A stretch of 60,382 bases of DNA, counting the filler, from Globobulimina sp. (Eukaryota): the NCBI GenBank assembly GCA_003354225.1. It is 3 parts of 3 records of this genome, joined end to end, with 100 filler letters (N's around TTAATTAATTAA, not from the genome) between each part and the next. Parts side by side here need not be neighbours in the genome. Positions count along the whole stretch, not along the records: positions 1 to 23,686 come from PIVH01000001.1; 2 more parts are not named here. One strand, 5' to 3'. Of the stretch, positions 2,687 through 20,937 are shown one piece after another. The stretch's first letter is position 1; each line of letters starts with the position of its first letter. A model generated the notes under the pieces. The model did not search any database and had not been told where the DNA came from. It was given only the letters and a program-made list of their open reading frames with translations. A program made the position numbers and the translations under genes.

Positions 2687-2717
2687 TTTTTAAAAAACCA
2701 TATATTATAATGGACTT
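2687..2717 (+). terminator. Conserved bipartite 3' element TTTTTAAAAA-N9/10-A(T/A)AATGGACTT (representative of 6 copies); function inferred
   Basis: Copies start at 2687, 3325, 6957, 10818, 12042, 20734, each just downstream of a gene that has the AAAATTGA promoter. Confidence 0.6.
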
Positions 2718-2789
2718 ATTTTCTATTATAATATTTTAAAAAAAAATGTTTTTAAATTAAAATTGATTTGTATATTATTTATAACAAAT

Positions 2790-3323
2790 ATGATTACTAA
2801 AACCCAAATCAAAATAAATAAAAGAAAAATGGAATTACAATTAAAAAGTATTATTCATTGTTGTAAATATTGTCGTGATATTAAAAAATCTATTGATATG
2901 AAATCTTCTAAAATGTGTAAGGATTGTTTTAGAAGTAGAGATATAATAAGATGTAAATTAAAAAGACAATTGAAGGGAAATAAATTAAAAAAACAAACAT
3001 ATTATCAAAAACATAAAAAAGAACTCATTAAAAAACAAAAGATAAATAATAAAAAAAGAAAAGAAGAATTAAAAAAATATCAAAAACAATATTGGATTAA
3101 AACAAGAACAATTGGAGAGTTATTCAATAGAGTTTTATTTGAATTAAGACAAACAACTATTAAATCTAAATCTATTGAACCTATTAATAAAAGAAGTAAA
3201 GGATATAAAAGAAATAAAGTAATTACTTTATATCCGTGTAAATGTTGTGGATTAAAAGGAAGGTCATATTCAGCATATATTAGACATTGTAAATCAAAGA
3301 AACATATTAAATTATCTTCTTAA
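2790..3323 (+). CDS. Basic Zn-finger protein
   Basis: CxxC pairs and C-terminal CxCC..H..SKKH finger; ATG 2790 preferred because the TTG at 2763 lies inside the promoter. Confidence 0.75.
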   Translation: MITKTQIKINKRKMELQLKSIIHCCKYCRDIKKSIDMKSSKMCKDCFRSRDIIRCKLKRQLKGNKLKKQTYYQKHKKELIKKQKINNKKRKEELKKYQKQYWIKTRTIGELFNRVLFELRQTTIKSKSIEPINKRSKGYKRNKVITLYPCKCCGLKGRSYSAYIRHCKSKKHIKLSS

Positions 3324-3354
3324 CTTTTTAAAAATCATATTATATAATGGACTT

Positions 3355-3603
3355 AATTGTAATTGTAAAATAAAATTATTTTAAAATTGATTTGTTTATT
3401 TATTTTAAAACTATGAAGTTTGTATTTTGGTGTGCTGTTTTGTATCTCGCATTCTTTTATCATCCTAAAAGAGAACTTGAAACACTGGAAGAAATTGAAG
3501 AAATTGAAAGACTTATTAAAGACTTTGAAGATAGAAAAGAACGAGTGCTTGAAGAACTTGAAGAAATTGTAATTGTAAAATAAAATTATTTTAAAATTGA
3601 TTT
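3355..3603 (+). repeat. 39-bp direct repeats flanking a small ORF
   Basis: AATTGTAATTGTAAAATAAAATTATTTTAAAATTGATTT at 3355-3393 and 3565-3603. Confidence 0.95.
3413..3583 (+). CDS. Small protein with hydrophobic N-terminus and coiled coil
   Basis: ATG 3413 downstream of AAAATTGA; MKFVFWCAVLYLAFF. Confidence 0.65.
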   Translation: MKFVFWCAVLYLAFFYHPKRELETLEEIEEIERLIKDFEDRKERVLEELEEIVIVK

Positions 3604-3636
3604 ATTTATTATAATAATATATCACCTATTATTATA

Positions 3637-3918
3637 ATGTCCTCTCATTTAGAACAATTAGAATTAAGATTAGAAAGAAACGAAAGAGAAATATCAAGAG
3701 CAAAAAAAGAGATGGATACATTTCTCAAAAATAAACAAATCATAACAACAGAATTACTTGAACTTATAGACGAATATGAGATTGAAGATAGATTAACATC
3801 CACATTTGGAGCACTACTTGTGAGTATCAAAAGCAAACAAGATGATAAAGAAAATATTGAAAATAAGATAATAGATTGTAAAATCCAAAGTATCTTTAAT
3901 AAATATATTTACGAATAA
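3637..3918 (+). CDS. Coiled-coil hypothetical protein
   Basis: 93-aa ORF behind AAAATTGA. Confidence 0.7.
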   Translation: MSSHLEQLELRLERNEREISRAKKEMDTFLKNKQIITTELLELIDEYEIEDRLTSTFGALLVSIKSKQDDKENIENKIIDCKIQSIFNKYIYE

Positions 3919-4281
3919 ATCTAATTGATAAATAAAAATGTTTAAAGAATTATTATATATATATTATATATAATATGTTTCAAGTATATAAATTATTAGA
4001 TAATACTGATAAATTACTTACAACCTTTCATAAGGATAGTAAGGATACTTTTTTTTTAATCAAGATTTTTATGATTTTTATGATTTTTTATATTTTTACC
4101 GAGATATTAAAAAATATGAGGTTTTTATACGATATTTAGGTGTTTTTATATAGAGATTATAGACTTTTTTTGTTTTTTAGAAAAAAATAAAAAAAATTAA
4201 AAAAACTATACCATTTTTCCTATACAAAAAATATTTTTTTTTAAAAATAAAAAAATAGTATAGAGTATATAAATAATTATT

Positions 4282-5211
4282 ATGAATAAATTAAATAATT
4301 TGATGAATGGTGTAAAAATTACAAACAAAAAAGAAAAAAAAGTAATTTGTGAATGTGGAAAAGCAGTCAATTCAATTTCTGCTCTCAACTATCATAAGTT
4401 TAAAGCAAAAAAACCTTGTGTTTTACAAACTGGGGAACAACAACCTACTAAATCATATTTAGATATGACCGAAGAAGAAGCAATTAATACAGCACATATT
4501 CAACAAGCAGATACTACCGAAGATGTTGAAGAACGGATTTTAAACCCAGCAGAACAAGCAGATAAATTAAGCAAACAAGAAGAGTTAAAAGATTTAATTA
4601 AACAAGATGCGAAGGTAATTAATTTAAATAAACCACCAGAGGTAAATACTATGTGTGATAATATTGATAAATTGGATTATGATAGTCTAAAAAATTATCT
4701 ACAAGAAGCAGAGACTAAAATCAATAAAGTAGCATCATCTAATATGGTAAATGGAGGAATACAATTTTTAAACCAAGGACTTTCAATGATTACTGATATA
4801 GCAAAAGAAGAATTGGATGAAGCAACAATTTTAGATAAAGCATATATGGAAGATACTCAATTTTTATTTAATAAATACGGAGGAAAACATATTAATAGAA
4901 ACAGAGAAATTAGATGGATGGTTCAAACAGTTAGTAAAGGTGCTGGTATGTTTTTTAGAAGTATGATGAACCAAGAAGCAATGTATAAAGAAGAAATGGA
5001 GAAAGAATATTTAAGACAACAACAAAAGAAAAAATCAAAGAAATCAAAGAAATCAAAGAAAGCAAAGAAAGCAAAGAGAAAGATTGAAGAAGAAACTGAA
5101 ATATTAGAAATATTAGATAGTGAAAGTGAAAGTGAAAGTGATACATCACCAGAAGATTATACTGATAGTGAAGAAGATACTGATTATACTGATAGTGAAG
5201 AAGAAGATTAA
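4282..5211 (+). CDS. Hypothetical protein with N-terminal Zn-finger and basic/acidic tail
   Basis: CECGK..LNYH motif; KKSKKSKKAKK then DSESESE/DYTDSEED repeats. Confidence 0.8.
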   Translation: MNKLNNLMNGVKITNKKEKKVICECGKAVNSISALNYHKFKAKKPCVLQTGEQQPTKSYLDMTEEEAINTAHIQQADTTEDVEERILNPAEQADKLSKQEELKDLIKQDAKVINLNKPPEVNTMCDNIDKLDYDSLKNYLQEAETKINKVASSNMVNGGIQFLNQGLSMITDIAKEELDEATILDKAYMEDTQFLFNKYGGKHINRNREIRWMVQTVSKGAGMFFRSMMNQEAMYKEEMEKEYLRQQQKKKSKKSKKSKKAKKAKRKIEEETEILEILDSESESESDTSPEDYTDSEEDTDYTDSEEED

Positions 5212-5276
5212 ATATTAAAAAAAATATTTTTTTCATATTAAAATTGATTTGTTTATATATATTAAACAACTCAACA

Positions 5277-5882
5277 ATGAATACAAAAAGAATAATCAAG
5301 AAAAACAAGAAAACAGATATGGAAGAGAAAACAAGAAAAGATACAGTAAAATCAAATTGTAAAATTGCGGTAGATGGTATAATTGAAAGAATAAATGATG
5401 ATTTTTTTGATTTAGAAGATAGAGAAGATGTAATCTTAAATGAAACAATTGAACGAAGAGAAGTTATAGGTAAAGTAATGTATGTAATAAGAAGAATTAG
5501 AGAACTTTCTTTATACGATATGATAGAATATAATTTTAATCATATATGTTTTGGTATGGGTGAAGATGAAGATAATTATTGGTTTATGATGAGATTTAAA
5601 AATATGGGTTTTAAAGATAAACGAATGATATATACATTTAACGACGAAATCCAAGAGTTATTATATGATTATCAATCAAAAGATACAGATAAAAGTCATA
5701 CAATTCAAGTATGTTATGATGATGAAGATGATGAGATATTTTTTTATATTGGGTTTAATAAACTACCAAATAAAATATGTCCTATTTGTGGAGAACCATC
5801 AATATTGGGTTGTAGTGATAGGAAAATGTGTTGGGATTGTGAATGGGATGGTAAGTGTGATGGTAAGTGTGATGATGATTAA
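5277..5882 (+). CDS. Hypothetical protein with C-terminal Zn-ribbon
   Basis: CPICG..CWDC; ATG 5277 preferred because the TTG at 5244 lies in the promoter. Confidence 0.75.
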   Translation: MNTKRIIKKNKKTDMEEKTRKDTVKSNCKIAVDGIIERINDDFFDLEDREDVILNETIERREVIGKVMYVIRRIRELSLYDMIEYNFNHICFGMGEDEDNYWFMMRFKNMGFKDKRMIYTFNDEIQELLYDYQSKDTDKSHTIQVCYDDEDDEIFFYIGFNKLPNKICPICGEPSILGCSDRKMCWDCEWDGKCDGKCDDD

Positions 5883-5956
5883 AAAAAAGATTTTTTCCAT
5901 ATTAAAATTGATTTGTTTATTATATATAAACAACTCAATTAATAACAACTTTTAAA

Positions 5957-6469
5957 ATGACTATTTTATCTACACCTTTTAACCTTCAAACATTCTTAAA
6001 GAAGTTTTATTCATTTCAAGTAGAAATGGGTATTACAAAACAACATTGTTTTCATAATGTTAGGTATTTAGTAGATTATCTAAAATGTTATGATATTAAT
6101 GTAAAATCTGTTAATGGATTTATAATATTGAGAAAGGAAAATCAACAAAGGAAAATAGAACATAACTGGATTGAATATGATAATGAAATCATTGAACCAA
6201 ATAAGAGATTATATGATTTTCAATCAATAAATAAGAAATATTTTAAGTTTAGTGAAACAAAAAAAATGTGGAAACAAATGAATACACCAAGAAAAGAGAG
6301 AATAGAAGATATGATATATAAAAAAAACCATTTAAAAAAATATTTTTCAAAATCTTATGGAATACATTTAAAATATGAAGATATGTTATGGAGTAGAATT
6401 ATAAATAAAGAACTATGTAATGAAGTATTATGTGAAACAAATGAATATAATTTATCACAACAAATATAA
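5957..6469 (+). CDS. Transglutaminase-like (Cys-His-acid) fold protein
   Basis: HCFHN ... VNGF ... HNWIE ... IIEP resembles the C..H-x-W..(D/E)P pattern. Confidence 0.5.
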   Translation: MTILSTPFNLQTFLKKFYSFQVEMGITKQHCFHNVRYLVDYLKCYDINVKSVNGFIILRKENQQRKIEHNWIEYDNEIIEPNKRLYDFQSINKKYFKFSETKKMWKQMNTPRKERIEDMIYKKNHLKKYFSKSYGIHLKYEDMLWSRIINKELCNEVLCETNEYNLSQQI

Positions 6470-6527
6470 AAAATATTTTTTTATATTAAAATTGATTTGT
6501 TTATTATTTATAAACTAATCAATTAAA

Positions 6528-6947
6528 ATGACTTATAATTGTATTGAAGATATATTGGAAGATTGTTCTGTTGAAACTGAAACTGAATGGAATAATTTAA
6601 TTCCAAAAGATATTGAAAGTATATTAAATACTATGTTATTTGAGACCGAGGAATATTTTTCTTTCTCTTGTGGAACTGATAGTTATTGTTTTAAACAAAT
6701 AGAAGAAGTTAGTAGGTATAAATCTGGAAAGAAGAAAGGACAAGTTAAAGAAGTTATAGTTCAAGAATGTCTTGGTAATGGTGAATTACTTAATGCTAAA
6801 AAGAAACTAAAATATACTGGGAAGAACTGGAAAATTACTCATTATTTTAGAACCTCTTGTTTTTATGGTAATAAATGGATTAAAGAAACTTCTAAATATT
6901 ATATGAGTAAAGGTTGGGTTCAACCATTCCAAGACCCTTCTTTTTAA
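6528..6947 (+). CDS. Hypothetical protein with possible F-box-like motif
   Basis: LIPKDIESIL; behind AAAATTGA. Confidence 0.7.
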   Translation: MTYNCIEDILEDCSVETETEWNNLIPKDIESILNTMLFETEEYFSFSCGTDSYCFKQIEEVSRYKSGKKKGQVKEVIVQECLGNGELLNAKKKLKYTGKNWKITHYFRTSCFYGNKWIKETSKYYMSKGWVQPFQDPSF

Positions 6948-7056
6948 AAAAAAATATTTTTAAAAAATATCCTTGAATAATGGACTTATTTTAAGTATAA
7001 TGAATATGAAATTATTATAAATATATAATAATATCATAATATATATTGATAATAGA

Positions 7057-7848
7057 ATGACTAAAAAAACAAAGAATAAAGAATGTGTTAATTTTTATAA
7101 CCATAACCATCACGGTATTTCTGTATTAGTTGGTCCTACTTTCTCTGGTAAATCTACGATTTTATTCACAATTCTTACTTCAAGTTTCTTGAAAAGATTT
7201 GTATATAAAAAAATATATATAGTTTGTGATGATACTTATAATGCTAATGAGTTATACAAAGTTTTAAACTTTAAAGTTAATTATATTTTTGAGTTTTTCA
7301 CACCAGAACTAATTGAAGAATTGTATGAAAAGGTAAAAGAAGATAGAGAAGAAGATATAAGAAAAGGTGAAATTAACCATTATGCTTTGGTAATGGATGA
7401 TTGTATAAATCATAAATGTTTTAATAAACGAGGTAGTGATGGTATAATATCAACGCTGGCTACAAAATCCAGACATTTTTTTTTAGATAATTACATACTT
7501 ACACAAAAATATAAAAGTATCCCAGATATAGTTCGTAAGAACACTCAATTTTTAATGGTTTGTGCTAATATTGGAGCAAAACAAGAAAGGGATGCGATAA
7601 TGGAAGAAATGAATATAATCAAAGATAATAATAATGAGTTTGTTAATCAAAATGTAATATGGAAGTTAGGACACAGAGTTAATAAAAAATATGATGTTTT
7701 AATATATGATATTAGAAATAAAAATGTATATAGAAACTTTCAATTATTAGATAAAGATTTATTAACAGAAGAAAATGAAAAATATGAAATGAGAAGATAT
7801 ATTAAAAAGAGAGAGTTTTTAGAAAAAATGGAAAAAATGAAGACTTAA
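7057..7848 (+). CDS. A32-like (FtsK/HerA) genome-packaging ATPase
   Basis: Walker A GPTFSGKST, Walker B LVMDD, A32 signature SRH..TQ..IP..RKN. Confidence 0.92.
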   Translation: MTKKTKNKECVNFYNHNHHGISVLVGPTFSGKSTILFTILTSSFLKRFVYKKIYIVCDDTYNANELYKVLNFKVNYIFEFFTPELIEELYEKVKEDREEDIRKGEINHYALVMDDCINHKCFNKRGSDGIISTLATKSRHFFLDNYILTQKYKSIPDIVRKNTQFLMVCANIGAKQERDAIMEEMNIIKDNNNEFVNQNVIWKLGHRVNKKYDVLIYDIRNKNVYRNFQLLDKDLLTEENEKYEMRRYIKKREFLEKMEKMKT

Positions 7849-7915
7849 TAAATGAATATTCAAACAAGAAAATTATATAAAAATAAAATATGATTATATA
7901 ATATAATAAATCAAT

Positions 7916-8647
7916 ATGAGTAAAGGAAAATTAATATTAAACTTATCAAAATCATTATATAATCAAAAATCAGTAGGTCATTTTAAAGTTAAATTACCAA
8001 AGAAAATAGAGAACTTTAATTCTTTTTATATCCATAATGTTAATATGATTAATTCACAATATACAAGTAATTCATTTAATAATACATTAGAAGTTTATTG
8101 GAATACTCAATTAAAAACAATTACTATGCCTACTCAACTATTCTCAACGATAGATGATTGGTGTTTAGAATTACAAACTCAATTAAATACAACTTTTTCT
8201 ACAAGTTTATTTTCAGTAGCATCTAATTCTGCTACTATGAAAAAAATGACTATCAAAACAACTGATAGTTCTGTATTTGAATTAAGGTTTTCAACATCAT
8301 CAAGAATTAATAGAGTTATGGGATTTTTAGAACAAGATTTCGTAGGAACATATACATATACAGCAACAAAGTTTTATAAACTATATCCAAAATATTTTGA
8401 TTTTAGATGTGATGAATTAGTTCAAAATATTACAACTGAAATTGATAATGAAGATACAAAAAGTTTTTTACAAGTTGATATTACTAATTCTACTGGTGGT
8501 ATATTATTTAATAAAACTCATATTATAGAAGATATGGTTGCTCCATTAGGTTATTTAGAATATTTAACTATTTATATTTATGATGATGAAGGTAATGCTG
8601 TTGAATTACAAGACGACGAAATTATCATTACTATTTATTATAAATAA
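7916..8647 (+). CDS. Minor capsid (penton) protein, single jelly-roll, Polinton/PLV-type
   Basis: N-terminal FKVKLPKKI..NSQY..NN and C-terminal LTIYIYDDEGNAVEL pattern; adjacent to the ATPase. Confidence 0.75.
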   Translation: MSKGKLILNLSKSLYNQKSVGHFKVKLPKKIENFNSFYIHNVNMINSQYTSNSFNNTLEVYWNTQLKTITMPTQLFSTIDDWCLELQTQLNTTFSTSLFSVASNSATMKKMTIKTTDSSVFELRFSTSSRINRVMGFLEQDFVGTYTYTATKFYKLYPKYFDFRCDELVQNITTEIDNEDTKSFLQVDITNSTGGILFNKTHIIEDMVAPLGYLEYLTIYIYDDEGNAVELQDDEIIITIYYK

Positions 8648-9079
8648 ACGAAACAATCATTTAAGAAAAAAATTATATTTAGTATTTATATATGTTTTAT
8701 TTTAAAAAGAAAAAAAAGAAAAAAAAGAATAATTTTGATTTTTTACCAAAAGAACTTGAAGATATAATAATGGATTATAAAGAAAGTTTAGAAAATTATG
8801 AAAAAAATAATATAATACATTTTAAAAATAAAACAAGAGACGAAATGTTGAAAATATATAAAAGAATTACTACTAATTATGATATTTTATTAAGAAAAAA
8901 TCATTTTGATGATGAAGAAGAAACATATTACGATAATAAATTATATAATTTATATATAAGAATTATAAGAAATGATTTTAGATATAACAAAACATTTAAT
9001 TTTTCTATACAAAGAGAATTATATTATAAATAAACGAAACAATCATTTAAGAAAAAAATTATAATTAGTATTTATATAT
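8636..9079 (+). repeat. 58-bp direct repeats (1 mismatch) flanking ORF 8692-9033
   Basis: 8636-8693 and 9022-9079; both contain the last codons YYK* of the preceding gene. Confidence 0.95.
8692..9033 (+). CDS. Hypothetical protein with F-box-like motif
   Basis: FLPKELEDIIMDY. Confidence 0.7.
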   Translation: MFYFKKKKKKKKNNFDFLPKELEDIIMDYKESLENYEKNNIIHFKNKTRDEMLKIYKRITTNYDILLRKNHFDDEEETYYDNKLYNLYIRIIRNDFRYNKTFNFSIQRELYYK

Positions 9080-9407: not shown

Positions 9408-9737
9408 ATGGTAAGAATTGTAGCAGAACCTTTAACTATGAAAGATAGAAAAGATTTTTTTTATAACAAGTTTATTTCAAAATGTAATAATGATAGTGTA
9501 AATGATTTATTAATATGGAATATGGATAGTGTAAGAGTTCCTATTAAAAACTTAACAACTGATAATATTAAACCATTTTTAGATATGCTTTCAAAGTTTA
9601 ATGAATATGATTATGATACTTTCATAATAATTTTTGAAATATATGATTTTGATGTAAGTAAAATATATCATTTAACCGAAAAACAGCAGAAAAATAGTAT
9701 GTTGAATAAATTATCTTACACATTTATAGAAGATTAA
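9408..9737 (+). CDS. Hypothetical protein
   Basis: 109-aa ORF behind AAAATTGA. Confidence 0.75.
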   Translation: MVRIVAEPLTMKDRKDFFYNKFISKCNNDSVNDLLIWNMDSVRVPIKNLTTDNIKPFLDMLSKFNEYDYDTFIIIFEIYDFDVSKIYHLTEKQQKNSMLNKLSYTFIED

Positions 9738-10364: not shown

Positions 10365-10817
10365 ATGATGCCGTTAGACGATTTTAATATGATGGGATTA
10401 TCTGGATTTATTGGTATGCTTAATATTATAAAAAGTCATAAATTACCAGTAAAAAAATTAAAACAAGAATGTAGATATTTTAACATTAAGGGATTTAGTA
10501 AATTGAAAAAAGCAGAATTAAAAGAATTATTAATAAAAACATTTGAATCAAAAATTAACAGAATAATAGCACGGAGATTGAAAGATGTTGGAACTTCAAT
10601 AAGAGTTTTAGGTCTTATGAGTTATACAGAAGAAAATAGCACAAATATAATACCAAGTATGATGAAACCAAGAAAAGATTTTAATTACACAAAACGACAA
10701 TTACGCAAACAATCAAGTATGGTAAGAATTAATTATAAACTTGATTTAGTTGAAAAAGAAACAATTAATCAATTAGATAAAGACACTACAAATATGTTAT
10801 TATCTTTTATTGATTAA
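10365..10817 (+). CDS. Protein with Rho-N/SAP-like helix-extension-helix motif
   Basis: LPVKKLKQECRYFNIKGFSKLKKAELKELL. Confidence 0.65.
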   Translation: MMPLDDFNMMGLSGFIGMLNIIKSHKLPVKKLKQECRYFNIKGFSKLKKAELKELLIKTFESKINRIIARRLKDVGTSIRVLGLMSYTEENSTNIIPSMMKPRKDFNYTKRQLRKQSSMVRINYKLDLVEKETINQLDKDTTNMLLSFID

Positions 10818-10917
10818 TTTTTAAAAAACAATATTATAAAATGGACTTATTTTAATATAAAAAAAAATATTTATTTATATTAAAATTGATTTGTATATTA
10901 TTTATATAATAACATAA

Positions 10918-11985
10918 ATGACTACTCAAACAGTTAAACCAATAAAAGCATTCTTCGGCAGAACTGGTGGAAAACATTTTAGTAAAAAATCAATATTACC
11001 ATTTATAGAACATTTAGAATATGACACTTATGTTGAACCATTTGTAGGTGCTGGTTCTATATTATTAGGAAGAAAGAAGAAAGTATCAAGAGAGATTATT
11101 AATGATTACGACCAATTAGTAGTTAATTTATGGAAAGGAATGAAATCAAGTGGAAATGAATTAAATGATTACTCATTATACTTTCAAGATAAATCTGTAT
11201 TTAAATGGTGGTTATTAAAAGAGAAACAATATAGAAGATTAAGACATTTAAAAGGAGAATATAAAGGAGGTCAAAAATATATTGATGAGATATATAATAA
11301 TACTGATTTTGGTATTGAGATTTTAAAAGAAGATATTTTTATTACCACGCATAGTAGAATGGCTAATAATAATAAACCAGACGGGAAATTAAAAGATAAT
11401 CATTATAGGTGTTGTCATTTTAGAGAGAAAACAAAAGAACTTAAAACAGAAACAATTGAAGAAGAAAAAGAAGATAAAGAAGTTTGTTGTTCTATTGAAA
11501 AAACAGAAGAAGGATTGAAATTAATAAAACGAAAATATTATGTTAGAAATAAGAAACATAGTGGAGATGAAACTAAATGGAGATTACATAACCCTAATTT
11601 ATGTGGATGGAATACTGTTTTAAAACAATGTAATAGATATTACGAAAGATTAAGAGACATTGAAATAAATCAAGGAGATTATAAAGAAATGCTACAATAT
11701 GATACTCCTAAAACATTATTTTATTTTGACCCACCTTGGACGAAAACTGCTACTGGTAAAAAGGGTAATAGTTGTTATAGTGGATGGGTTGAATTAGAAG
11801 ATTTTTATAATTCTATAAAAGATTTAAAAGGAAAATGGATGTGTTCTTATAATAACGATGAAGATATATTAAAAAGATTTGAAGGTCATAGAATAGAATA
11901 TATAAATACTATTTATACACAGAAAAAAACGGGTTCAAAGAAAACTGTTGATGTATTAATATTCAGTAAGAACTTTTTTGATTAA
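10918..11985 (+). CDS. D12-class (Dam-like) N6-adenine DNA methyltransferase
   Basis: GGK, YVEPFVGAGS, IINDYD, catalytic FYFDPPW, W..SYN. Confidence 0.9.
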   Translation: MTTQTVKPIKAFFGRTGGKHFSKKSILPFIEHLEYDTYVEPFVGAGSILLGRKKKVSREIINDYDQLVVNLWKGMKSSGNELNDYSLYFQDKSVFKWWLLKEKQYRRLRHLKGEYKGGQKYIDEIYNNTDFGIEILKEDIFITTHSRMANNNKPDGKLKDNHYRCCHFREKTKELKTETIEEEKEDKEVCCSIEKTEEGLKLIKRKYYVRNKKHSGDETKWRLHNPNLCGWNTVLKQCNRYYERLRDIEINQGDYKEMLQYDTPKTLFYFDPPWTKTATGKKGNSCYSGWVELEDFYNSIKDLKGKWMCSYNNDEDILKRFEGHRIEYINTIYTQKKTGSKKTVDVLIFSKNFFD

Positions 11986-12133
11986 AAAAAAGATTTATTT
12001 ATTATTAAAATAGATTTAAACATATTGATGACTGGAATTAATTTTTAAAAAATATATTTGAATAATGGACTTATTTTATATTTAGATTTGGTTTTTTATT
12101 TAAATATAATATAATACATATATTATATAAAAA

Positions 12134-12511: not shown

Positions 12512-12844
12512 ATGGATACAGTTATTAAACAAACAATCGCAATGAAAGATGATTTGAAAGATAGTTTTAATAAACCTAAAAATACTAATGATAGAGAATT
12601 ACCCAGTTGGTTTAAGTATTCTGTTTATGGAATTGCTACCGTATTTCTTGGTTCTTTATATCACGGACTTAATATGAAAGAAGAACTTTTCAATTCTACT
12701 ATTGAAGTTGTAAAAGATGCGAATGAAGTTGTAGGAGTTAATAAAGCATATGAAGGAGCAAGTGATACTTTAATTGGTTTATTCAATTTTCCAGTTGAAA
12801 AATCAAATGAAGGTTCAAAAACCTTTAATGGAAAACAATTTTAA
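12512..12844 (+). CDS. Small protein with one TM helix
   Basis: WFKYSVYGIATVFLGSLY. Confidence 0.75.
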   Translation: MDTVIKQTIAMKDDLKDSFNKPKNTNDRELPSWFKYSVYGIATVFLGSLYHGLNMKEELFNSTIEVVKDANEVVGVNKAYEGASDTLIGLFNFPVEKSNEGSKTFNGKQF

Positions 12845-12890
12845 AATAGAAATAAAAAACTATGTATATTATATAAAACAAAAAAGTATA

Positions 12891-13265
12891 ATGGGTTTTT
12901 TCAAGAATATTGGAAAGTCAGTAAATAAGAAAATAATTAAACCAGTAGGTAAGGAATTGAAAAAAGCAGACCCTATTGGAAAAGTAAAGGATGTTGCGGA
13001 AGATGCTCTTCAATTTTTTGAAAAAATTGGTTCAAAATTATCCGTTATTGGAAAGGATATTGGTTCAATTTTTGAATTACAATTCAAATTATTAGAGAAT
13101 ATAATAAAATTAGTGCCTACAATAATTTCAATTTTAAAGAACTCACTTGTATTATTTTCTACTACTTGTGAGGTATTAGAATTATTGATTATTATTGGTC
13201 CAGTTTTAATAACATATTATTATATATCAAGAATGATTACCAATTTTGAGAAAAATGATTTATAA
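12891..13265 (+). CDS. Amphipathic protein with hydrophobic C-terminus
   Basis: ATG 12891 (MGFFKNIGK) follows an AT-rich leader; C-terminal LLIIIGPVLITYYYI. Confidence 0.7.
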   Translation: MGFFKNIGKSVNKKIIKPVGKELKKADPIGKVKDVAEDALQFFEKIGSKLSVIGKDIGSIFELQFKLLENIIKLVPTIISILKNSLVLFSTTCEVLELLIIIGPVLITYYYISRMITNFEKNDL

Positions 13266-13335
13266 TGAATATTCAAAGGAGTAAATATAATAAATATAAA
13301 ATATTATAATATTATATAAAACATAAAATATTATA

Positions 13336-13985: not shown

Positions 13986-15179
13986 ATGTCTAAACAAAAA
14001 CCAACATATATGAAAGATGAAGAAATCCACGACTTATCAAACACAAAAACATCAATCGTAATATTAGAACCAGTTGGAGCATTAGATTATGTAAAAACCA
14101 ATACTGGTGCTAATTTTATTGAGTTTCAAATGCCTAAATCTGGTATTTTTGATATGAGAGTAGCATATGTAAAAGGATTAACTCAATCTAACGGAATAAT
14201 GAGTAAAGATATTCAAGCATCAGTTTCTTCTTTTGAAGTAAGAGTTGGTGGTAAAGCAATATTTAAAAGTAGTGAAATGAACGCCGACAACATCATTAAT
14301 CCATTAATCAATAAATTAACTTTAACCGATTTTCAAGTAGCAGATGGAGATTATCAATTATACAATCAAACTTGTATTGCCGATACTGATTATCCATTTC
14401 AATTAAAATTATCAAATGAAAATAAACATTTTGGACTATGTCCCATTTTAAACAAAACAATTGACTTTTCTTTAATTAAAGATAAAGTTGTATTAAGAAT
14501 TATTTTTGATAAAACAGTTTCTAATCATTGCCATACATTAGCAACTACCCGACAATGGACCGATATGAGATTAATGTTAGAGAAAATTGATGCTGATATT
14601 GATTTATCCAGTGAAGTTGTATTCAAATCAGTTGGTTATTCAATCATTCAACAAACTCAATTAGCAAGTTCTAATAAATGTAAAATTGATATGAGCGGAT
14701 TAGACCACGATAACGTAATTGGTGTAATTCCAATGATGATTTCAAGTGATAATTTTAATTCAAGTGATTTAGCAGAAAAATATCTAAATAACTTTGATTA
14801 TACTGGATTAAAAAACTTACAAGTCTATAATGACTATAATCCAATCCTATCCCACGAACCATTAGAGATGGAAGATTATTTCCAAACACAAAACCTAATG
14901 GCTGAAAAGTTTTTAGGAACAAGATTTAAGAAAAATCAAGCGAAAATTGGAACATATCATTCTACTTATGCTAAAACAGCAACAGACAGCAAAAGATGTC
15001 TATTAATTCCTTTATCCGCAAATGTAAAATCTTTATCTGGATTAAATCTATCCAAAAGTGATACAAGTTCAGTAGAGTTCGGTATTGCTAATACAGTTGA
15101 TATGACTGTATGGAGTGTTGTATTATATACAAAAATATTTGCCCTTGAAAATGGTAAGTTCGTAGCAGTATTAAATTAA
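13986..15179 (+). CDS. Major capsid protein, double jelly-roll (Polinton/PLV-type)
   Basis: 397 aa, beta-rich; N-terminal P..FIEFQMPKSGIFD pattern resembles Polinton/PLV MCPs; same contig as the ATPase and penton. Confidence 0.75.
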   Translation: MSKQKPTYMKDEEIHDLSNTKTSIVILEPVGALDYVKTNTGANFIEFQMPKSGIFDMRVAYVKGLTQSNGIMSKDIQASVSSFEVRVGGKAIFKSSEMNADNIINPLINKLTLTDFQVADGDYQLYNQTCIADTDYPFQLKLSNENKHFGLCPILNKTIDFSLIKDKVVLRIIFDKTVSNHCHTLATTRQWTDMRLMLEKIDADIDLSSEVVFKSVGYSIIQQTQLASSNKCKIDMSGLDHDNVIGVIPMMISSDNFNSSDLAEKYLNNFDYTGLKNLQVYNDYNPILSHEPLEMEDYFQTQNLMAEKFLGTRFKKNQAKIGTYHSTYAKTATDSKRCLLIPLSANVKSLSGLNLSKSDTSSVEFGIANTVDMTVWSVVLYTKIFALENGKFVAVLN

Positions 15180-15260
15180 ATAATTTTTAAGATATATTAG
15201 TATTCACCACCCATCATTGTTGTATTTGATTTTAATACTAATCTTTTCTTTTAAAATGCT

Positions 15261-15377: not shown

Positions 15378-15459
15378 TTATAAGAGTTTTCTTTTACATT
15401 ATTCAAAAAACAAAATAAAATAAAAATAAAAAATCATTTTGTATTATATATAATATAAA

Positions 15460-17040
15460 ATGTTTAACAATAACGGATTTAATATAGATGGAAATAATTT
15501 TTTTAATACTGTAAATACAAATCAATTAATTACTGATAAAATAGAGGTTGATAGTGCTGTAATCCAAGGTGGATTAATAGTTGATGGAGGAACATTAACT
15601 ATTGATGAAACTTTAAATGCTGTTGGTATAAATTGTTTAACTCCAACATTAGATTTAACTATTCAAAACTCTTCCACTGGTTTTGAGGTAGGGAATAGTG
15701 GTAATATGTATATTGTAAGAGAAAATGAAACAATGATTACTTTGGGAACTGATACTACTATTCATACTAATACTATAATTGATGGTAATATTACAACAGA
15801 TACTTTAAATGTCTCTGGAACTGCTAATATTACTGGTAATTTAATAATTCAAGACCAGTTATATTTTAAAGACAGTAATACGAGAATTAAAGAATGGAAC
15901 GGTGATATGGTATTTTTAACCAATAATACTGAAAGAATGAAAATTGATGAACCTGCTGGTGATATTAACATTACAAATAGTTTAGATGTAGGAAGTAATA
16001 TAACAAGTCAAACTTTAACAACAACCAGTATAGCAACTTTTAATGATGATGTAATAATTATAGGTGATTTAAATGTTAATGGAACAACAACAACAATTGA
16101 TACACAAAATCTAACCATAGAAGACAGTATGATTAAACAATCAAAAAACAATTATTTAAGTGATTTAATTGATATTGGAGAATATGGAGTTTATAATAAT
16201 GGAACAACTGCTTATACTGGAATGTTTAGAGATGCTGATGATGGAGTTTATAAGATTTTCAATAGTTTAGAAGTTGAACCAACAACAACAGTTGATATTG
16301 GAGCAACTGGTTTTACTTATGCTGATTTAATGATAAATGATTTAACAGCAATTAATTTGAACGCAGATTATATTCAAATTACAGATGATAGTTTATATCA
16401 TTCACAATTAGGCGTAAAGGAACTCAAACTCTTTAACCCATCTCGGGGACACTTCTCAATTTTGAATACTGATGGTGAAGCAAGTAATGCGGCAGAGTTT
16501 GTAATCGCAACCACGAATACTGGGCCGGGATTAGGTTTAACACCAACTCCTTTATTTACATTAACAGAAGGAGGTAATTTAGACATTAAAGGTGATATTA
16601 CAGCAACTAATATCCCTACTACTGGTGGTGTTTTAAATATGATTATGGCTGATACATCAAGTGGTTTAGTAGCAATTGATACTACTTGTAGCACAACAAG
16701 TGAAACTGCTATGTATTATTACGCATATAGTCCAATATCATCAACGGGGAAAATATTAGTAGAAACTAATTTCCCTTATATCGTAAATGGGGATGGTAGT
16801 GATAGTTTTGAAGCAAGATTAAAGTTTTCTTACAATAATGCTCCAACCACTTTCTATACTTTACAAATGAAAATGTATGGCTCATCAACCAGAAAAAACA
16901 ATATAGATATATTATGGGGGAATATTGATAAAACGGGAGAAGACATTTTAATTAAGTTTTATGTTAATAGATTATCTAGTAATGATACTTACACAAGCAC
17001 AACAGCAGAAGCAATGATAAAAATTACAGAAACAAATTAA
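15460..17040 (+). CDS. Fibre/spike-like virion protein
   Basis: Repeated I.GN(I/L) beta motifs; GDLNVNGTTTTIDTQNLTIED and YTGMFRDADDG resemble phage and giant-virus fibre proteins. Confidence 0.7.
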   Translation: MFNNNGFNIDGNNFFNTVNTNQLITDKIEVDSAVIQGGLIVDGGTLTIDETLNAVGINCLTPTLDLTIQNSSTGFEVGNSGNMYIVRENETMITLGTDTTIHTNTIIDGNITTDTLNVSGTANITGNLIIQDQLYFKDSNTRIKEWNGDMVFLTNNTERMKIDEPAGDINITNSLDVGSNITSQTLTTTSIATFNDDVIIIGDLNVNGTTTTIDTQNLTIEDSMIKQSKNNYLSDLIDIGEYGVYNNGTTAYTGMFRDADDGVYKIFNSLEVEPTTTVDIGATGFTYADLMINDLTAINLNADYIQITDDSLYHSQLGVKELKLFNPSRGHFSILNTDGEASNAAEFVIATTNTGPGLGLTPTPLFTLTEGGNLDIKGDITATNIPTTGGVLNMIMADTSSGLVAIDTTCSTTSETAMYYYAYSPISSTGKILVETNFPYIVNGDGSDSFEARLKFSYNNAPTTFYTLQMKMYGSSTRKNNIDILWGNIDKTGEDILIKFYVNRLSSNDTYTSTTAEAMIKITETN

Positions 17041-17135
17041 ATAATTCTTTTTGATTATATCAAGGTAATTTTAATATACTTTTATGTTTTAATTTAAATA
17101 TAATAATATATGTTAAAGATATACATCAAAATAAA

Positions 17136-18104
17136 ATGGAAGTAGTATTATTAAGTATCGCTGGAATATCAGCAACATTATTAAAAGTAAGTGTAATGGG
17201 AGTTGGATTAAAAGAATTAGCACCATCCACTTTCTCTGGATTAATTTTATTAACGAAGTTTTGGAAAAAATCATACGCAATAACCAAATTATCACAGTGT
17301 CTTTTTTTCAGTATTTTTGTGAGATTACCAAGAAAAAGTGATAAAGACCTCATACAATTTAGAAAACTTGTAAAGAAGATTTGGTCCAGACATTCTGCTT
17401 ATGAAATCTATCGTTATTATAGGTATGTAAAAGCATTAAGTCCATTAATTTTACAAGCCAATTTAAGTCAAGATGAAATCTTTATGGAGAATAAGCACGA
17501 AATCCTATTAAATTGTGATAGGTTCAAAGATTATGTATGTAAAGCCTTATATTGTAATGCTTTATCTAAAATCATTGAAGTTCAATTATGGTGTGCTTCT
17601 GCCCCAATTAAAGATATACAAAAATTAAAATATTCATTTTTATTTAATTTAGCAGAAAAGAAAACAGTATCAGTAGAGCAATGTAGAACTATCTGCGAGC
17701 AATTTGAAGAGAAAGTCAATAAATATCAAGTATCTCAAATGGAAAAATATGCTACTGATTTTGATTGTGAAAAAACTGTTATTGATAATATCTTTGATGA
17801 ATTAGAGAATGACGATGATACATTTAAAGAAGGAGCAATTGGGTCAATTGTTATGATTAGAAAATGTATTATGAGACAAAAACACGCAGTAGGTTATGAT
17901 AATTTTAATTCATTATCATCAACTTTAACTGGAATTAACGAACAAGTTGAAACCAGTAAGAACTTAAAATCTGGTTCAACAGAAGAAGCAAATAGAGTTC
18001 ATCAATTATTCCATCAAGATAGACAAAATAGTATTTTAAGTGATACTCCAAGTGTATCAACAACATCAACAACATCAACAATATCAAGAACAGAAAGAAA
18101 TTAA
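17136..18104 (+). CDS. Hypothetical protein with hydrophobic N-terminus
   Basis: 322-aa ORF. Confidence 0.8.
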   Translation: MEVVLLSIAGISATLLKVSVMGVGLKELAPSTFSGLILLTKFWKKSYAITKLSQCLFFSIFVRLPRKSDKDLIQFRKLVKKIWSRHSAYEIYRYYRYVKALSPLILQANLSQDEIFMENKHEILLNCDRFKDYVCKALYCNALSKIIEVQLWCASAPIKDIQKLKYSFLFNLAEKKTVSVEQCRTICEQFEEKVNKYQVSQMEKYATDFDCEKTVIDNIFDELENDDDTFKEGAIGSIVMIRKCIMRQKHAVGYDNFNSLSSTLTGINEQVETSKNLKSGSTEEANRVHQLFHQDRQNSILSDTPSVSTTSTTSTISRTERN

Positions 18105-18295
18105 AAAATAATTATATAATATATAGGAAAAATGAAAATAAAATATATAAGAATATATCAAGGTAAGAAAAAGACAAAATATATAATTCGTAAGAAAATT
18201 AATATATGGAGAAGAAACGGATTTTATAAACCTCAATGTATTTATATATTGAAGAAATAAAAAATATATTTATTAAAATTGATTTATTTTAATAA

Positions 18296-18373
18296 AATAC
18301 TATACAAAATATCATTTAAATATAAATCGTTATAATACTATACAAAAATATCATTTAAATATAAATCGTTATA
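18296..18373. repeat. ~38-bp tandem duplication
   Basis: AATACTATACAAAA(A)TATCATTTAAATATAAATCGTTAT x2. Confidence 0.9.
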
Positions 18374-18406
18374 AGAATTATAATATTATATATTATATAT
18401 TATACT

Positions 18407-18679
18407 ATGAATATTACTCAAATACAACAAATGCTAACACCCGAATTATTATTATCAATATTAAATAAGTTTAGAGTATGTAAAATGTGCGATAAACCAA
18501 AGGACAAAAGCACATTCAAAGGGACAAAATGTGCTGAATGTTATAAAACATATATAACTGGAAAAATGAAGACATACAACGAAAAACAATCAACCAAAGA
18601 TAGATTACATTTAAAATATAAAGCAATTAAGGCAAGTAAAGCAATTAAGGCAAGTAAAGCAACCACCATAAAGGTATAA
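18407..18679 (+). CDS. Small Zn-binding protein
   Basis: CKMC..CAEC. Confidence 0.7.
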   Translation: MNITQIQQMLTPELLLSILNKFRVCKMCDKPKDKSTFKGTKCAECYKTYITGKMKTYNEKQSTKDRLHLKYKAIKASKAIKASKATTIKV

Positions 18680-18779
18680 AAACATTATTAAAATTGATTT
18701 ATTACATTTATTTAAATAAAATCGTTTAAATAAATATATATATATATAATATAAGTATATAGACAACTAACTCTTTAAA

Positions 18780-20138
18780 ATGAATAATCAAAATCAAGAA
18801 GAAGAAGAAACAATTTTAGATATTACCGAAGAATTAACTGACGAGGAACAAACAACACAAATATTAAATGATGACCCTTTAATATGTATTTGTAGAGATT
18901 GTATTCAAAACCACGGACAAGATGGAAAAACATTCACAGCAAAAAGAAATAAATCAAGACATTTAAAAAGAATGGCTAAAATGGTTAAAAAGACAAAAAT
19001 CATTTATAATTGTAAATGTAAAGTCTGCCTTAAAAAATACGGAATTAATGGAAGAACTGATTTTGATAAATACGGATATGAAAGACATTTAAAAGCAATT
19101 GAAAACAAAATCAAAAGAGATAATAAAGTTTATATATGTGGGTGCTGTAATAAAGATTGGGAACATCAAAGCATATTAGATAAACATCAAGGGGGAGATA
19201 AGTATAGAACTTGGTATAATACGATGAATGGTGAAATTAATGGAATTAAGATTTTTACAACCAGTAAAGATAAAACATTTACGAAGGAGATATTAAATAA
19301 AGAAGCAGAAGAAAAAAAAAATATAATTACTGAAAAATATAAAAAAACATTAGGACAAGATAAAAAAACATTAGAACAAGAATTAAAAGAAGAATTAAAA
19401 AAGTTTGAAGAAAACACAATAGGGGAGGATTATGATACAATTACCTTAAAATGTATTGAATGCTCTATATGTAAAGTTTATTGTAATGATTTAAAAAAAC
19501 ATACAGAATTAGAAACTCATAAATGGATATTAAATTATTTATCAAATCAAAATACTCAAAATAATTACAGTTATTCAAAATATACAAATATGATGTTATA
19601 CAATCAATTATATAATAGAAACGCAATTAATAGAATAGCAAGGTCAAGAGACACCAGAGAAGATTTTAAAAAAGCAGAACAGAAATTAACCAGATATTTT
19701 GAAGGAGATAATAACAATAACAATATCAAAGAGAATAAACAAATACACGGTTATAATAAAATGATGATTGTAAAAAGTTTAAACGGACAAAATACATTAA
19801 ATAAACAATATTATAAATCATTTAAACAGTTCAATTGTAAATGCTGTAAAACATCATTTAAATTATATGAAACATTTAAAAGACATAACGAAAAGAATGA
19901 ATATTATCATATAGAACAAGAGAAAGAAAGAAAAGAAGAGAAAAAACAAAAACAACAATATTTAATAGATAGTGGAAATTATAGAGTTTTATCACTTTTC
20001 AATATGGGTTATGGTATTGACGCATTAACATTTGAAAATATGCGACAAAAAACCTCAATAGATATTAGAGCAGAACGAGCAGAACGATATGATGAAATAA
20101 CAGAAAAGAATAAATGGGAAAAAATGATAATAGATTAA
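18780..20138 (+). CDS. Multi-Zn-finger protein
   Basis: Several CxC/CxxC..H motifs (CICRDC..RH, CKCKVC..RH, CGCC..KH, CSIC..KH, CKCC..RH). Confidence 0.8.
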   Translation: MNNQNQEEEETILDITEELTDEEQTTQILNDDPLICICRDCIQNHGQDGKTFTAKRNKSRHLKRMAKMVKKTKIIYNCKCKVCLKKYGINGRTDFDKYGYERHLKAIENKIKRDNKVYICGCCNKDWEHQSILDKHQGGDKYRTWYNTMNGEINGIKIFTTSKDKTFTKEILNKEAEEKKNIITEKYKKTLGQDKKTLEQELKEELKKFEENTIGEDYDTITLKCIECSICKVYCNDLKKHTELETHKWILNYLSNQNTQNNYSYSKYTNMMLYNQLYNRNAINRIARSRDTREDFKKAEQKLTRYFEGDNNNNNIKENKQIHGYNKMMIVKSLNGQNTLNKQYYKSFKQFNCKCCKTSFKLYETFKRHNEKNEYYHIEQEKERKEEKKQKQQYLIDSGNYRVLSLFNMGYGIDALTFENMRQKTSIDIRAERAERYDEITEKNKWEKMIID

Positions 20139-20262
20139 ATTAAAAAGATATTAAAGTTATATAAATTACGAAAAAAACATAGTAAAATTGATTTGTTAAT
20201 ATACTATTAATTAATCAATTATTATAAACCTTTAAAAACTTTAAGACATTTAAAAAGACATT

Positions 20263-20733
20263 ATGAGTAAAACTTTTTGTAGATTTTGTAAAAAAGAGTA
20301 TTCTTTGAATTATTATAATTCCTATCATATTAAGAGTAAAAAACATTTAGGATTAAAAAAAGAAATTGAAGACAAAGAAGAATTGAATAATTTTAGAGTA
20401 GAAAAACAAAAAGAAGAAATAAGTAATAATTTTATGATTGAGTTTATGAATATGAAAAAGAAAATGTTAGAAATGGAGAAAAGAATTAAAGAGTTAGAGA
20501 AAAATGAAGATATTAATGATTTAATTGGAGAAGGTGTAATTACAGAGAGAAGATTTGTAATAGTTAAGAAACAAAAATGTAATGTTTGTAATGAAGAAAA
20601 AGATTTGAATATGTTTGATATTGATAGAAAATGTAGAAATGGAAGAAGAAAGAGATGTAAAGAGTGTAGAAGAGTTAGAAAGAAAGAATTAGATTTGGAA
20701 AAGATATTAGAGAGTTGTTTAAACATAGTTTAA
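20263..20733 (+). CDS. Zn-finger / coiled-coil protein
   Basis: CRFC..HIKSKKH and CNVC..CKEC. Confidence 0.8.
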   Translation: MSKTFCRFCKKEYSLNYYNSYHIKSKKHLGLKKEIEDKEELNNFRVEKQKEEISNNFMIEFMNMKKKMLEMEKRIKELEKNEDINDLIGEGVITERRFVIVKKQKCNVCNEEKDLNMFDIDRKCRNGRRKRCKECRRVRKKELDLEKILESCLNIV

Positions 20734-20937
20734 TTTTTAAAAAATGTAATTGTATAATGGACTTGTTTTTAAGAATAAGTATTTATAAAGATATTAAAGT
20801 ATTTTTATAAATCAAATTGTAAAGAAAATCAAAAGTGTAAATATATTAGGGTGCTGGTAATGTGAAGTTTATTACAATCTATATCAATATTTTTATTTTG
20901 AGTTAATTCATCAATAAATAAATATACACCTTATAAA

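Follow-up and report, generated by a model that had tools for sequence, protein, structure and literature searches.

What does a short conserved sequence do when it recurs, always on the strand of the gene before it, at the ends of otherwise unrelated genes? The question is raised by the first contig (positions 1-23686) of the DNA analysed here, a window of 60,382 nt in which three contigs are concatenated via N44-TTAATTAATTAA-N44 linkers. Contig 1, with a GC content of 22%, is a polinton-like or virophage-like element that carries an A32 ATPase, a capsid candidate (13986-15179), a fibre-like ORF and a D12 methyltransferase, and it has inverted repeats at 699-927 and 23036-23154. A first-pass annotation had reported six copies of a bipartite motif on this contig, and all six were found, each on the plus strand with zero to two mismatches (2687, 3324/3325, 6957, 10818, 12042 and 20734), against 0.05 copies expected by chance; none of 100 shuffled sequences contained at least six. 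The copies are confined to contig 1, with contigs 2 and 3 lacking the element, and no published description of it was found in the literature.

Public bacterial and archaeal assemblies were scanned and yielded 15 further copies, spread over 11 short contigs, rich in AT, of record PIVM01. The coding sequences of these contigs are for the most part unrelated to those of the window, and the contigs may represent the helper virus or further polinton-like viruses (PLVs). Because the copies from outside all stem from this single record, the evolutionary breadth of the element is narrow. When anchored on TGGACTT, the 21 copies (six from the window and 15 from outside) align without gaps and yield a consensus of about 40 nt, TTAA-T5-W-A5-C-AA-N5-TATAATGGACTTATTTT, or in the longer form given by column counts, TTAA-T5-W-A5-C-AA-N5-TATAATGGACTT-ATTTT. 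The bipartite motif of the first-pass annotation is present, although it was stated too short, and the spacing of 19-20 bp assigned to it is an artefact of where the end of the T-run is placed. The conserved unit has sharp borders, a left box of T5-W-A5 and a core, ATGGACT, that does not vary. For 12 of the 15 copies from outside, the search pattern itself partly dictates that T5...A5 and AATGGACTT are constant, and columns outside that pattern are also conserved (C18 in 16/21 copies, A27 in 20/21, T28 in 19/21, and T39-42 in 18-20/21). A TTAA stands ahead of the T-run in most copies (columns 5-6 are A in 17-19 of 21); stop codons of this genome, too, usually stand in a TTAA context.

The placement of the element with respect to genes is equally regular. 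Copy 1, a T6A6 form (2684-2722), follows an ORF at 2370-2681 whose stop codon lies 4 nt before the T-run, and copy 2 (3321-3359) follows the ORF at 2790-3323, whose stop is 1 nt from the T-run. Copy 3 (6954-6992) lies 9 nt after the ORF at 6528-6947, which is the last of three successive early-promoter genes (5277, 5957 and 6528); the next gene is the A32-type ATPase. Copy 4, an AAAATGG variant (10815-10853), begins at the stop codon of the ORF at 10365-10817, and copy 6 (20731-20769) begins at that of the ORF at 20263-20733, again behind three successive early-promoter genes (18407, 18780 and 20263). Behind copy 6 lie 292 nt of non-coding DNA with 22-nt tandem repeats. Five window copies thus begin 0-9 nt past a stop codon (4, 1, 9, 0 and 0 nt), and copy 5 (12039-12077) stands 56 nt downstream of the D12 methyltransferase gene (10918-11985). 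The intervening DNA (11986-12041, plus strand) is an 'empty cassette', consisting of an A-run/T-run, a degenerate promoter AAAATAGATTT and a 6-codon ORF whose stop runs into copy 5; its degenerate promoter module, AAAATAGA, belongs to repeat family D12 and is 73% identical to the reference promoter module. Over all 21 copies, the T-run begins 0-22 nt past a same-strand stop codon in 20 and 56 nt past it in the remaining one, with the distances for four copies that the script missed taken by direct reading, and the strand of the element is that of the upstream ORF in every copy.

What lies behind the element is far less constant. An exact AAAATTGA follows within 10-60 nt in 11/21 copies, the next same-strand ATG lies anywhere from 25 to 292 nt away, and several copies have no such downstream gene. 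In L011, an opposite-strand gene for a 580-aa ABC transporter (Pfam E=3e-35) ends 22 nt behind the element, or 17 nt beyond its trailing T-run, and this copy, facing the end of a convergent gene, speaks against the element being a promoter of the next gene; the copies at L023:1280 and L106:741 probably also lie between convergent genes. Comparison with relatives points in the same direction. Copy 1 has an orthologous copy in L106 that follows the orthologous gene, and copy 3 has one in L089 where the downstream gene is different. In both orthologous pairs the element is kept with the upstream gene (85% and 82% amino acid identity), and in both the downstream neighbour differs.

The element is also tied to one class of genes. 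Early-promoter genes, defined here by AAAATTGA within 150 nt upstream, use a promoter sequence also employed by a PLV virophage of a mesomimivirus, as described in bioRxiv 10.1101/2022.07.28.501842. Eleven genes are directly followed by the element, of which ten have an exact AAAATTGA upstream and one a one-mismatch variant. Among 47 genes, the element follows 10/21 with AAAATTGA versus 1/26 without (Fisher p=0.001), and within the window it directly follows 5/14 AAAATTGA genes versus 0/21 others (p=0.006). No copy was found behind a capsid, fibre or ATPase gene among the genes examined: the A32 ATPase (7057-7848), the capsid candidate, the fibre-like ORF (15460-17040) and likewise the gene at 17136-18104 all lack a trailing element. 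Two statements of the first-pass annotation, that each copy follows a AAAATTGA gene and that none follows a structural gene, are borne out by these counts. A third, that the element closes early-promoter genes, is right as to the restriction to early genes but not in implying that every early gene is closed. Because only 10/21 early-promoter genes have the element, and some early blocks end without it (3414-3918 and 9408-9737), it cannot be the sole early stop signal.

The promoter side of these transcription units is itself repetitive. The early-promoter module, A8-GA-T7 plus AAAATTGATTTGT (2303-2364, plus strand), represents repeat family D1, whose eight copies lie at 2303, 2736, 5217, 5881, 6465, 10259, 10859 and 23150. 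Every cassette has its own promoter, and the cargo genes are mutually unrelated, as the first-pass annotation had remarked; the promoter-ORF-3' element cassette that it proposed fits the data, except that the 3' element is missing from about half of the early-promoter genes. Beside copy 2, a 46-nt direct repeat of 98% identity (3355-3400 and 3565-3610, spanning 3355-3610 on the plus strand; family D14) flanks the small early gene at 3414-3583, covering that gene's last codons and promoter, and is a trace of cassette duplication or insertion.

Folding of the element gave uniformly negative results. The six window copies contain no hairpin (RNA fold z from -1.72 to +1.15), RNAalifold predicts 0 pairs over the 21 copies, and the best hand-drawn helix, between the A-run and the U-run, is 70.8% paired versus 71.0% in shuffles, with 0 compensatory changes; no covariation was seen across the copies. 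Nor is there excess folding in 33 window 3' flanks (z from -2.0 to +1.6). Established signals were also considered as candidates. The poxvirus TTTTTNT signal is present in only 3/21 55-nt windows, a run of T7 or longer occurs in 0/21 copies, and the eukaryotic and algal poly(A) signals AATAAA and TGTAA are found in 0/21 and 2/21 copies, respectively.

The observed existence, conservation, position, strand, class association and upstream-gene linkage of the element are best accommodated if it acts in cis to mark the 3' ends of early-class transcription units in an AT-rich polinton-like element that uses AAAATTGA and depends on a giant virus of mimivirid type, and likewise in its relatives, a reading that we judge to have about an even chance of being correct. 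The first-pass annotation had likewise suggested an early-class termination or 3'-processing signal, and its ties to 3' ends, to the early class and to the upstream gene stand; its role in ending transcripts, like its mode of action as DNA or RNA, is what we infer from sequence. Transcription would start at the AAAATTGA module through the early machinery of the helper virus, pass one to three ORFs, and meet the element just beyond a stop codon. There the element would be read by sequence rather than by fold, as a T5-W-A5-C box and TATAATGGACTT at an invariant distance followed by a short T-run, upon which the polymerase would stop, or the transcript would be cut and polyadenylated at the element. 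Junctions with a promoter module only would be read through, producing 3'-coterminal nested early transcripts. With the element (about 40 nt) and the promoter module both repeated at many gene borders, there would be homology for recombination, and promoter-ORF-element units could thereby behave as portable cassettes, which we count as a secondary consequence.

It is possible, although in our view unlikely, that the element is instead a post-transcriptional 3'-UTR element, that is, a site on early mRNAs through which a bound factor would control their translation, stability or decay as early expression gives way to late; the true transcript end would then lie further downstream. The same positional, strand and class evidence fits such a site, and a conserved sequence without structure suits recognition of single-stranded RNA; moreover, m6A sites are enriched near stop codons, and the GGACU of the element presumably fits their DRACH consensus. 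There is, however, little room for a separate signal or terminator, because the next early promoter follows within 10-60 nt in 11/21 copies and the convergent gene of L011 ends 22 nt behind, and downstream of the element neither a further conserved 3' motif nor a hairpin was seen.

A primary role as a recombination site or cassette boundary, through which genes are gained, lost or exchanged as at attC sites or T4-type PeSL modules, is quite unlikely, even though several features of the locus lend themselves to it. Homology to L106 and L089 breaks at or beside module borders at 3/3 visible junctions (in L106, on the left between element and promoter module and on the right about 15 nt after the element; in L089, at or inside the element), and the 9-nt spacer of L089 is wholly different despite a gene that is 87% identical at the DNA level. 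The empty cassette, the 46-nt direct repeat around gene 3414-3583 and the unrelated cargo genes are of the same kind. The junctions, however, come from two relatives only, and with short intergenic spacers of about 100 nt breakpoints would quite often land close to the element by chance. Pfam searches found no integrase or recombinase match in 57 window protein queries (a 5072-aa ORF being entered as two halves) or in 13 PIVM01 ORFs, and neither an inverted repeat nor a foldable structure is present in the element. Strict co-orientation, abutment on stop codons and a single promoter class are predictions of a transcription signal, and are not required of a pure recombination site.

Some other DNA-level site, serving replication, packaging or an insulating protein, or else a selfish miniature repeat spread by gene conversion into TTAA-rich gene ends, is very unlikely. 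The sharply bordered unit and the TTAA before most T-runs, which is also the ordinary stop context, would suit either, but a replication or packaging site needs no co-orientation with genes, stop abutment or avoidance of late genes. The alignment of the 21 copies shows neither a target-site duplication nor terminal inverted repeats, and no presence/absence polymorphism was seen, both comparable orthologous gene ends already carrying the element. Least credible is a rightward promoter or initiator, whether it drives the downstream gene as a second-class promoter or starts a short non-coding RNA: two boxes at invariant spacing plus a TATAAT-like box resemble core-plus-initiator promoters, the invariant ATG sits in an A-3/G+4 context, in 5/6 window copies TGGACTT is followed by the next ATG at 60-72 nt, and three window copies precede genes without AAAATTGA (7057, 12134 and 21057), but the variable or missing downstream genes, the convergent cases and the retention of the element when the downstream gene is replaced all speak against it, as do the ORFs of only 4-17 codons that its ATG opens in the six window copies (by direct reading) and the absence of the element from the other non-early genes, the capsid candidate and fibre-like ORF among them.

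If the element is indeed a 3'-end signal of early units, it would constitute a second regulatory 'word' beside AAAATTGA by which polinton-like viruses plug into the programme of their helper, and early transcription units would become predictable from sequence alone. It would also provide a marker linking PLVs, virophages and helper viruses in metagenomes, and a concrete substrate for studying the movement of gene cassettes between them. To our knowledge, early transcript ends in giant-virus systems other than the amoeba-infecting Mimiviridae are poorly known, and the only rule described is a sequence-independent hairpin. A bolder proposal, which we hold tentatively and at somewhat less than an even chance, is that this is the first stop or polyadenylation signal of a mimivirid-type system to be both class-specific and defined by primary sequence. 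It would be read in a poxvirus-like manner by the helper's early machinery rather than by the hairpin rule, would be common to the helper and its polinton-like parasites, and would form with the AAAATTGA module self-sufficient early cassettes that are exchanged among these genomes.

How the element compares with known systems depends on which of its properties is considered. Integron attC sites are folding imperfect inverted repeats that are cut by the IntI integrase next to attI/Pc. The element resembles them as a recurrent site 3' of promoterless or unrelated cargo ORFs, but differs in that no integrase was matched and each cassette has its own promoter; because it has no inverted repeat or hairpin, the integron analogy of the first-pass annotation fails on structure. 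The comparison drawn there with T4-type promoter/terminator modules is apt, as an analogy only. PeSL are likewise short conserved regulatory modules bordering small, unrelated and mostly unknown genes, and PeSL differences between relatives map to the modules, as reported in PMC2839356 and PMC4122927. They consist, however, of a bacterial sigma-70-type promoter and a stem-loop terminator in phages, whereas here the promoter is of AAAATTGA type, the element has no stem-loop and the host system is eukaryotic-viral, and the closer PeSL analogue is the A-run/T-run plus AAAATTGA module, with the element as an additional, separate 3' module.

Under the hairpin rule, the poly(A) addition site coincides with the hairpin motif. 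Mimiviridae are reported to use such hairpins as a 3' signal (PMC4402537), and the sites described there and in PMC6163669 resemble the element in lying just past stop codons within a AAAATTGA early-promoter system. Hairpin-rule sites are palindromes without sequence conservation that serve all temporal classes, whereas the element is a conserved sequence without hairpin that stands behind early-promoter genes only. Class-specific or sequence-defined 3' signals are described for other large DNA viruses, namely the vaccinia early TTTTTNT and the chlorovirus TGTAA (PMC3946568). Like the putative signal here, the chlorovirus and green-algal TGTAA, which is found on early genes in PBCV-1 according to the same source, and the eukaryotic AAUAAA are sequence-defined 3' signals, but both are rare or absent in the element (2/21 and 0/21). 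The element differs from vaccinia in that the putative signal is about 40 nt long and bipartite, with its invariant ATGGACT core, and holds TTTTTNT in 3/21 only. Poxvirus early termination occurs 20-50 nt downstream of the signal and needs the capping enzyme and NPH-I. The vaccinia signal, TTTTTNT or U5NU, is nevertheless similar as a primary-sequence signal with a T-run, located downstream of ORFs of the early class in a cytoplasmic large DNA virus (PMC3946568), and the element matches the poxvirus terminator in its early-class restriction, following 10/21 AAAATTGA genes versus 1/26 others.

The 3' element of the window had been reported in six copies, and a pattern search allowing up to three mismatches finds exactly six, all on the plus strand (2687, 3325, 6957, 10818, 12042 and 20734; copies 1 to 6), against a shuffle expectation of 0.05 copies and with none of 100 shuffles containing six. 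Taken singly, the right box (ATAATGGACTT, one mismatch allowed) and the left box (TTTTTAAAAA) each occur at nine window sites, and the two are combined at these six only. All six copies lie within contig 1 (1-23686); contigs 2 and 3, which are unrelated, are without any copy. Printed with their flanks, the copies reveal an element longer than first described. Together with 15 copies from elsewhere they form a set of 21 that aligns without gaps, both by anchoring on TGGACTT and by MAFFT, with the consensus (T)TTAA-TTTTT-W-AAAAA-C-AA-N5-T-ATAATGGACTT-ATTTT. The spacing given in the first-pass annotation as 19 versus 20 is in fact invariant across the 21 gapless copies, the apparent difference arising at the W in the centre of the T5-W-A5 box. 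For 12 of the 15 copies from elsewhere, invariance of the boxes is imposed by the search pattern that found them; conservation also extends to columns outside that pattern, namely a C 3' of the A-run (16 of 21 copies), A27 (20 of 21), T28 (19 of 21) and the trailing T-run (18-20 of 21). An invariant ATG precedes the GGACT core in what we take to be an A-3/G+4 context, and a genuine small ORF starting there is ruled out, since in the six window copies it runs for 4-17 codons (MDLF...) with differing ends.

The outside copies derive from a scan of a bacterial and archaeal genome collection with the motif pattern at a gap of 9-11, which fits the form at 3325 only and leaves the five other window copies outside its reach. 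At least 120 loci matched. Among the matches listed, 109 stand alone, do not show the extended consensus and are chance hits in unrelated bacteria, and 11 are contigs (0.5-6 kb, roughly 20% GC) of PIVM01, a record labelled as a gammaproteobacterial MAG and, among the matches listed, the sole source of outside copies. These contigs carry at least 12 exact copies by pattern and three more by profile search. Contig 1 of the window is absent among the matches listed. Five of the PIVM01 contigs (L011, L031, L050, L068 and L075), with ~20% GC and promoters of the giant-virus (Mimiviridae-type) early motif AAAATTGA, encode an ABC-2 transporter, two DUF2589 proteins, C5 and N6 DNA methyltransferases and helicase-like proteins, and look like mis-binned viral DNA of PLV or giant-virus origin; a PDB sequence search with the helicase-like ORF of L068 gave no match.

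That the window is a concatenation follows from two N44-TTAATTAATTAA-N44 linkers (23687-23786 and 42222-42321), which join contigs at 1-23686 (22% GC), 23787-42221 (26-32%) and 42322-60382 (37-45%). Nearly all ORFs of contig 1 are on the plus strand, and they include a packaging ATPase of the poxvirus A32 type (7057-7848, E=8e-8), an adenine methyltransferase of the D12 type (10918-11985) and a capsid-protein candidate (13986-15179), the last a lead only, whose language-model neighbours are all viral with a minority annotated Capsid_N or Capsid_NCLDV. The 526-aa ORF at 15460-17040 was rejected as a capsid gene; its 72 matches, covering 11-42% of the query, some named trimeric autotransporter adhesin and some with PF13884 or PF18454, point to a fibre-like protein. 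Nothing was found for 17136-18104 by language-model neighbour search, nor for 18780-20138 by PDB sequence search. A pair of 114-nt inverted repeats, 99% complementary, lies at 699-927 and 23036-23154, the left arm being present as a tandem duplicate (698-812 and 813-927, 97%); both arms are internal, with ~700 nt outside the left and ~530 nt, an early-promoter gene (23217-23561) included, outside the right. The window contains 33 AAAATTGA sites versus 17 expected, and most of them lie 31-90 nt upstream of plus-strand ORFs of contig 1. Judged by gene content and motifs, this is the make-up of a putative polinton-like or virophage-like element using the Mimiviridae early promoter, as a PgVV-type PLV is likewise reported to do (bioRxiv 10.1101/2022.07.28.501842).

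Other repeats were seen in contig 1. Two 58-nt intergenic stretches (8636-8693 and 9022-9079; ACGAAACAATCATTTAAG...), 98% identical, stand ahead of the non-early genes 8692 and 9087 and are possibly modules of a second regulatory class. The stretches 7851-7914 and 13264-13327 (repeat family D9), directly 3' of the ATPase gene's stop and that of ORF 12807-13265, share a sequence that opens with the perfect palindrome TGAATATTCA. Repeats at 20935-21022, 21889-21948 and 23038-23080 comprise a 22-nt tandem repeat of 3-4 copies in the long spacer 3' of copy 6, 12-nt repeats within ORF 21057-22166 and CACTCTCTAAA-type repeats at the right inverted-repeat arm. Contig 2 has genes for a protein with a ribosomal L7/L12 C-terminal domain, for another with a NUMOD1 domain and for a third that matches Cpn10 weakly (27743-28111, 31496-31843, 39436-40035); contig 3 has one 5072-aa ORF on the minus strand (42472-57690), carrying domains of the VWA (E=3e-11) and REJ (E=2.5e-8) types, and another VWA protein at 58608-59792.

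In 20 of the 21 copies, the T-run of the element starts 0-22 nt past the stop codon of a same-strand ORF; ORF calling covered 18 copies, of which L031 had no upstream ORF call, and the distances for L031, window 3325, L023:240 and L050:1011 come from direct reading. Only the 12042 copy departs from this, lying 56 nt 3' of the methyltransferase gene, where the intervening 11986-12041 holds a degenerate promoter module (AAAATAGA) and a six-codon ORF with a stop that runs into the element; this empty cassette looks to be what is left of a deleted gene. The upstream ORFs encode 53 to 1381 aa; among their products are a helicase-like protein, an N6 methyltransferase that has a specificity domain and numerous proteins belonging to no family. 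Strong similarities among 19 of them are confined to two window/PIVM01 orthologue pairs, and two weak C-terminal matches link the L106:2-289 fragment to the L068:407-4552 (minus strand) protein (42% over 71 aa) and to the window 10365-10817 protein (37% over 49 aa); at its C-terminus the L068 protein also has weak Pfam matches to Rho_N and SAP. On L011 an opposite-strand 580-aa ABC-transporter gene ends 22 nt 3' of the element, and the copies at L023:1280 and L106:741 look convergent as well, judged on less sequence.

Promoter class was compared across 47 genes whose 5' ends are complete, 35 from contig 1 and 12 from PIVM01 contigs. The element follows 10 of the 21 genes with an exact AAAATTGA within 150 nt upstream (absent from 11) and only one of the 26 without (absent from 25), and that lone gene has a one-mismatch variant (Fisher p=0.001 for the 47 genes, p=0.006 for the window alone). 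The element had been said to close early-promoter genes and never structural ones. The latter is borne out, as the ATPase, capsid-candidate and fibre-like genes all lack an element behind them; the former holds insofar as the element is confined to the early class, but only about half of that class has it. Early-promoter genes without the element directly adjoin the next promoter module (A8-GA-T7, CATATT, AAAATTGATTTGT; repeat family D1). By our own reading of gene and motif order, the early genes of the window form nine runs, six of which end in an element: 2370 in copy 1, 2790 in copy 2, 5277-5957-6528 in copy 3, 10365 in copy 4, 10918 in copy 5 and 18407-18780-20263 in copy 6. L068 and L075 have the same arrangement, two early genes and then one element.

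Two PIVM01 contigs match the window by blastn, the results of which alone were used because tblastx was swamped by low-complexity matches: L106 (window 2303-2779, 80.5%) and L089 (window 6671-6988, 87%). Both retain the upstream gene with its element in changed surroundings. Left of the promoter module, L106 has a different gene with an element of its own, and to the right homology fades ~15 nt beyond the element, where a probable opposite-strand ORF follows. In L089, homology stops at the element, the inter-box spacer is wholly different, and the ATPase that lies downstream in the window is replaced by another ORF, the start of which carries what we take to be a cytosine-methyltransferase motif. 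Within the window, a 46-nt direct repeat (3355-3400 and 3565-3610, 98%) adjoins copy 2 and brackets a small gene (3414-3583), taking in its last codons plus promoter, which suggests a recent 210-bp cassette duplication or insertion. These comparisons link the element to its upstream gene, and they fit a shuffling of cassettes, on the thin evidence of two relatives, three junctions and short spacers.

A hairpin terminator is ruled out on four counts: single-sequence folds have z-scores of -1.72 to +1.15; RNAalifold predicts no pair from the 21-copy alignment; the sole drawable helix, which joins the A-run to the trailing U-run, is 70.8% paired versus 71.0% in shuffled sequence and has no compensatory change; and 33 window 3' flanks have no general folding excess. 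For the last reason, the Mimiviridae hairpin rule for transcript ends (PMC4402537) is not visible in contig 1. Known linear signals are likewise rare or missing (TTTTTNT in 3/21 copies, T7 or longer in 0/21, AATAAA in 0/21 and TGTAA in 2/21).

The element is strictly co-oriented with the upstream gene, abuts the stop, keeps to one promoter class, is linked to the upstream gene and occurs between convergent genes, five properties that point to a transcription or RNA signal at the end of early units; fixed spacing and sequence conservation without structure suggest that the sequence itself is recognised. We give about even chances to an early-class termination or 3'-end-formation signal, which the five positional properties, with the evidence on spacing, conservation and structure, favour over its rivals. 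The first of these is a 3'-UTR element acting post-transcriptionally; in all 21 copies the invariant core GGACT (for example at window 2711-2717) fits what we take to be the DRACH consensus for m6A methylation. A dedicated recombination site is the second, and the changed surroundings in the relatives bear on it; under a termination or 3'-end-formation signal, the exchange of cassettes would follow incidentally from having many identical 40-nt borders. Another rival is a rightward promoter, against which stands the variable distance to the next same-strand start codon, 25-292 nt away and absent for several copies. Some other DNA site or a selfish repeat is a further rival, set against the same positional properties.

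The element appears to be a previously undescribed signal within the literature searched: the available portions of work on AAAATTGA and polinton-like elements and on hairpin-rule termination in giant viruses do not describe the motif, and the matches listed for the literal string TAATGGACTT are, by title, unrelated (human cell and cancer biology, bacterial, yeast). It is neither a hairpin-rule site, nor a PeSL, nor an attC site. While it does not belong to the vaccinia early terminator family, it is alike in logic to the vaccinia early terminator, being class-specific, sequence-defined and T-run-containing.
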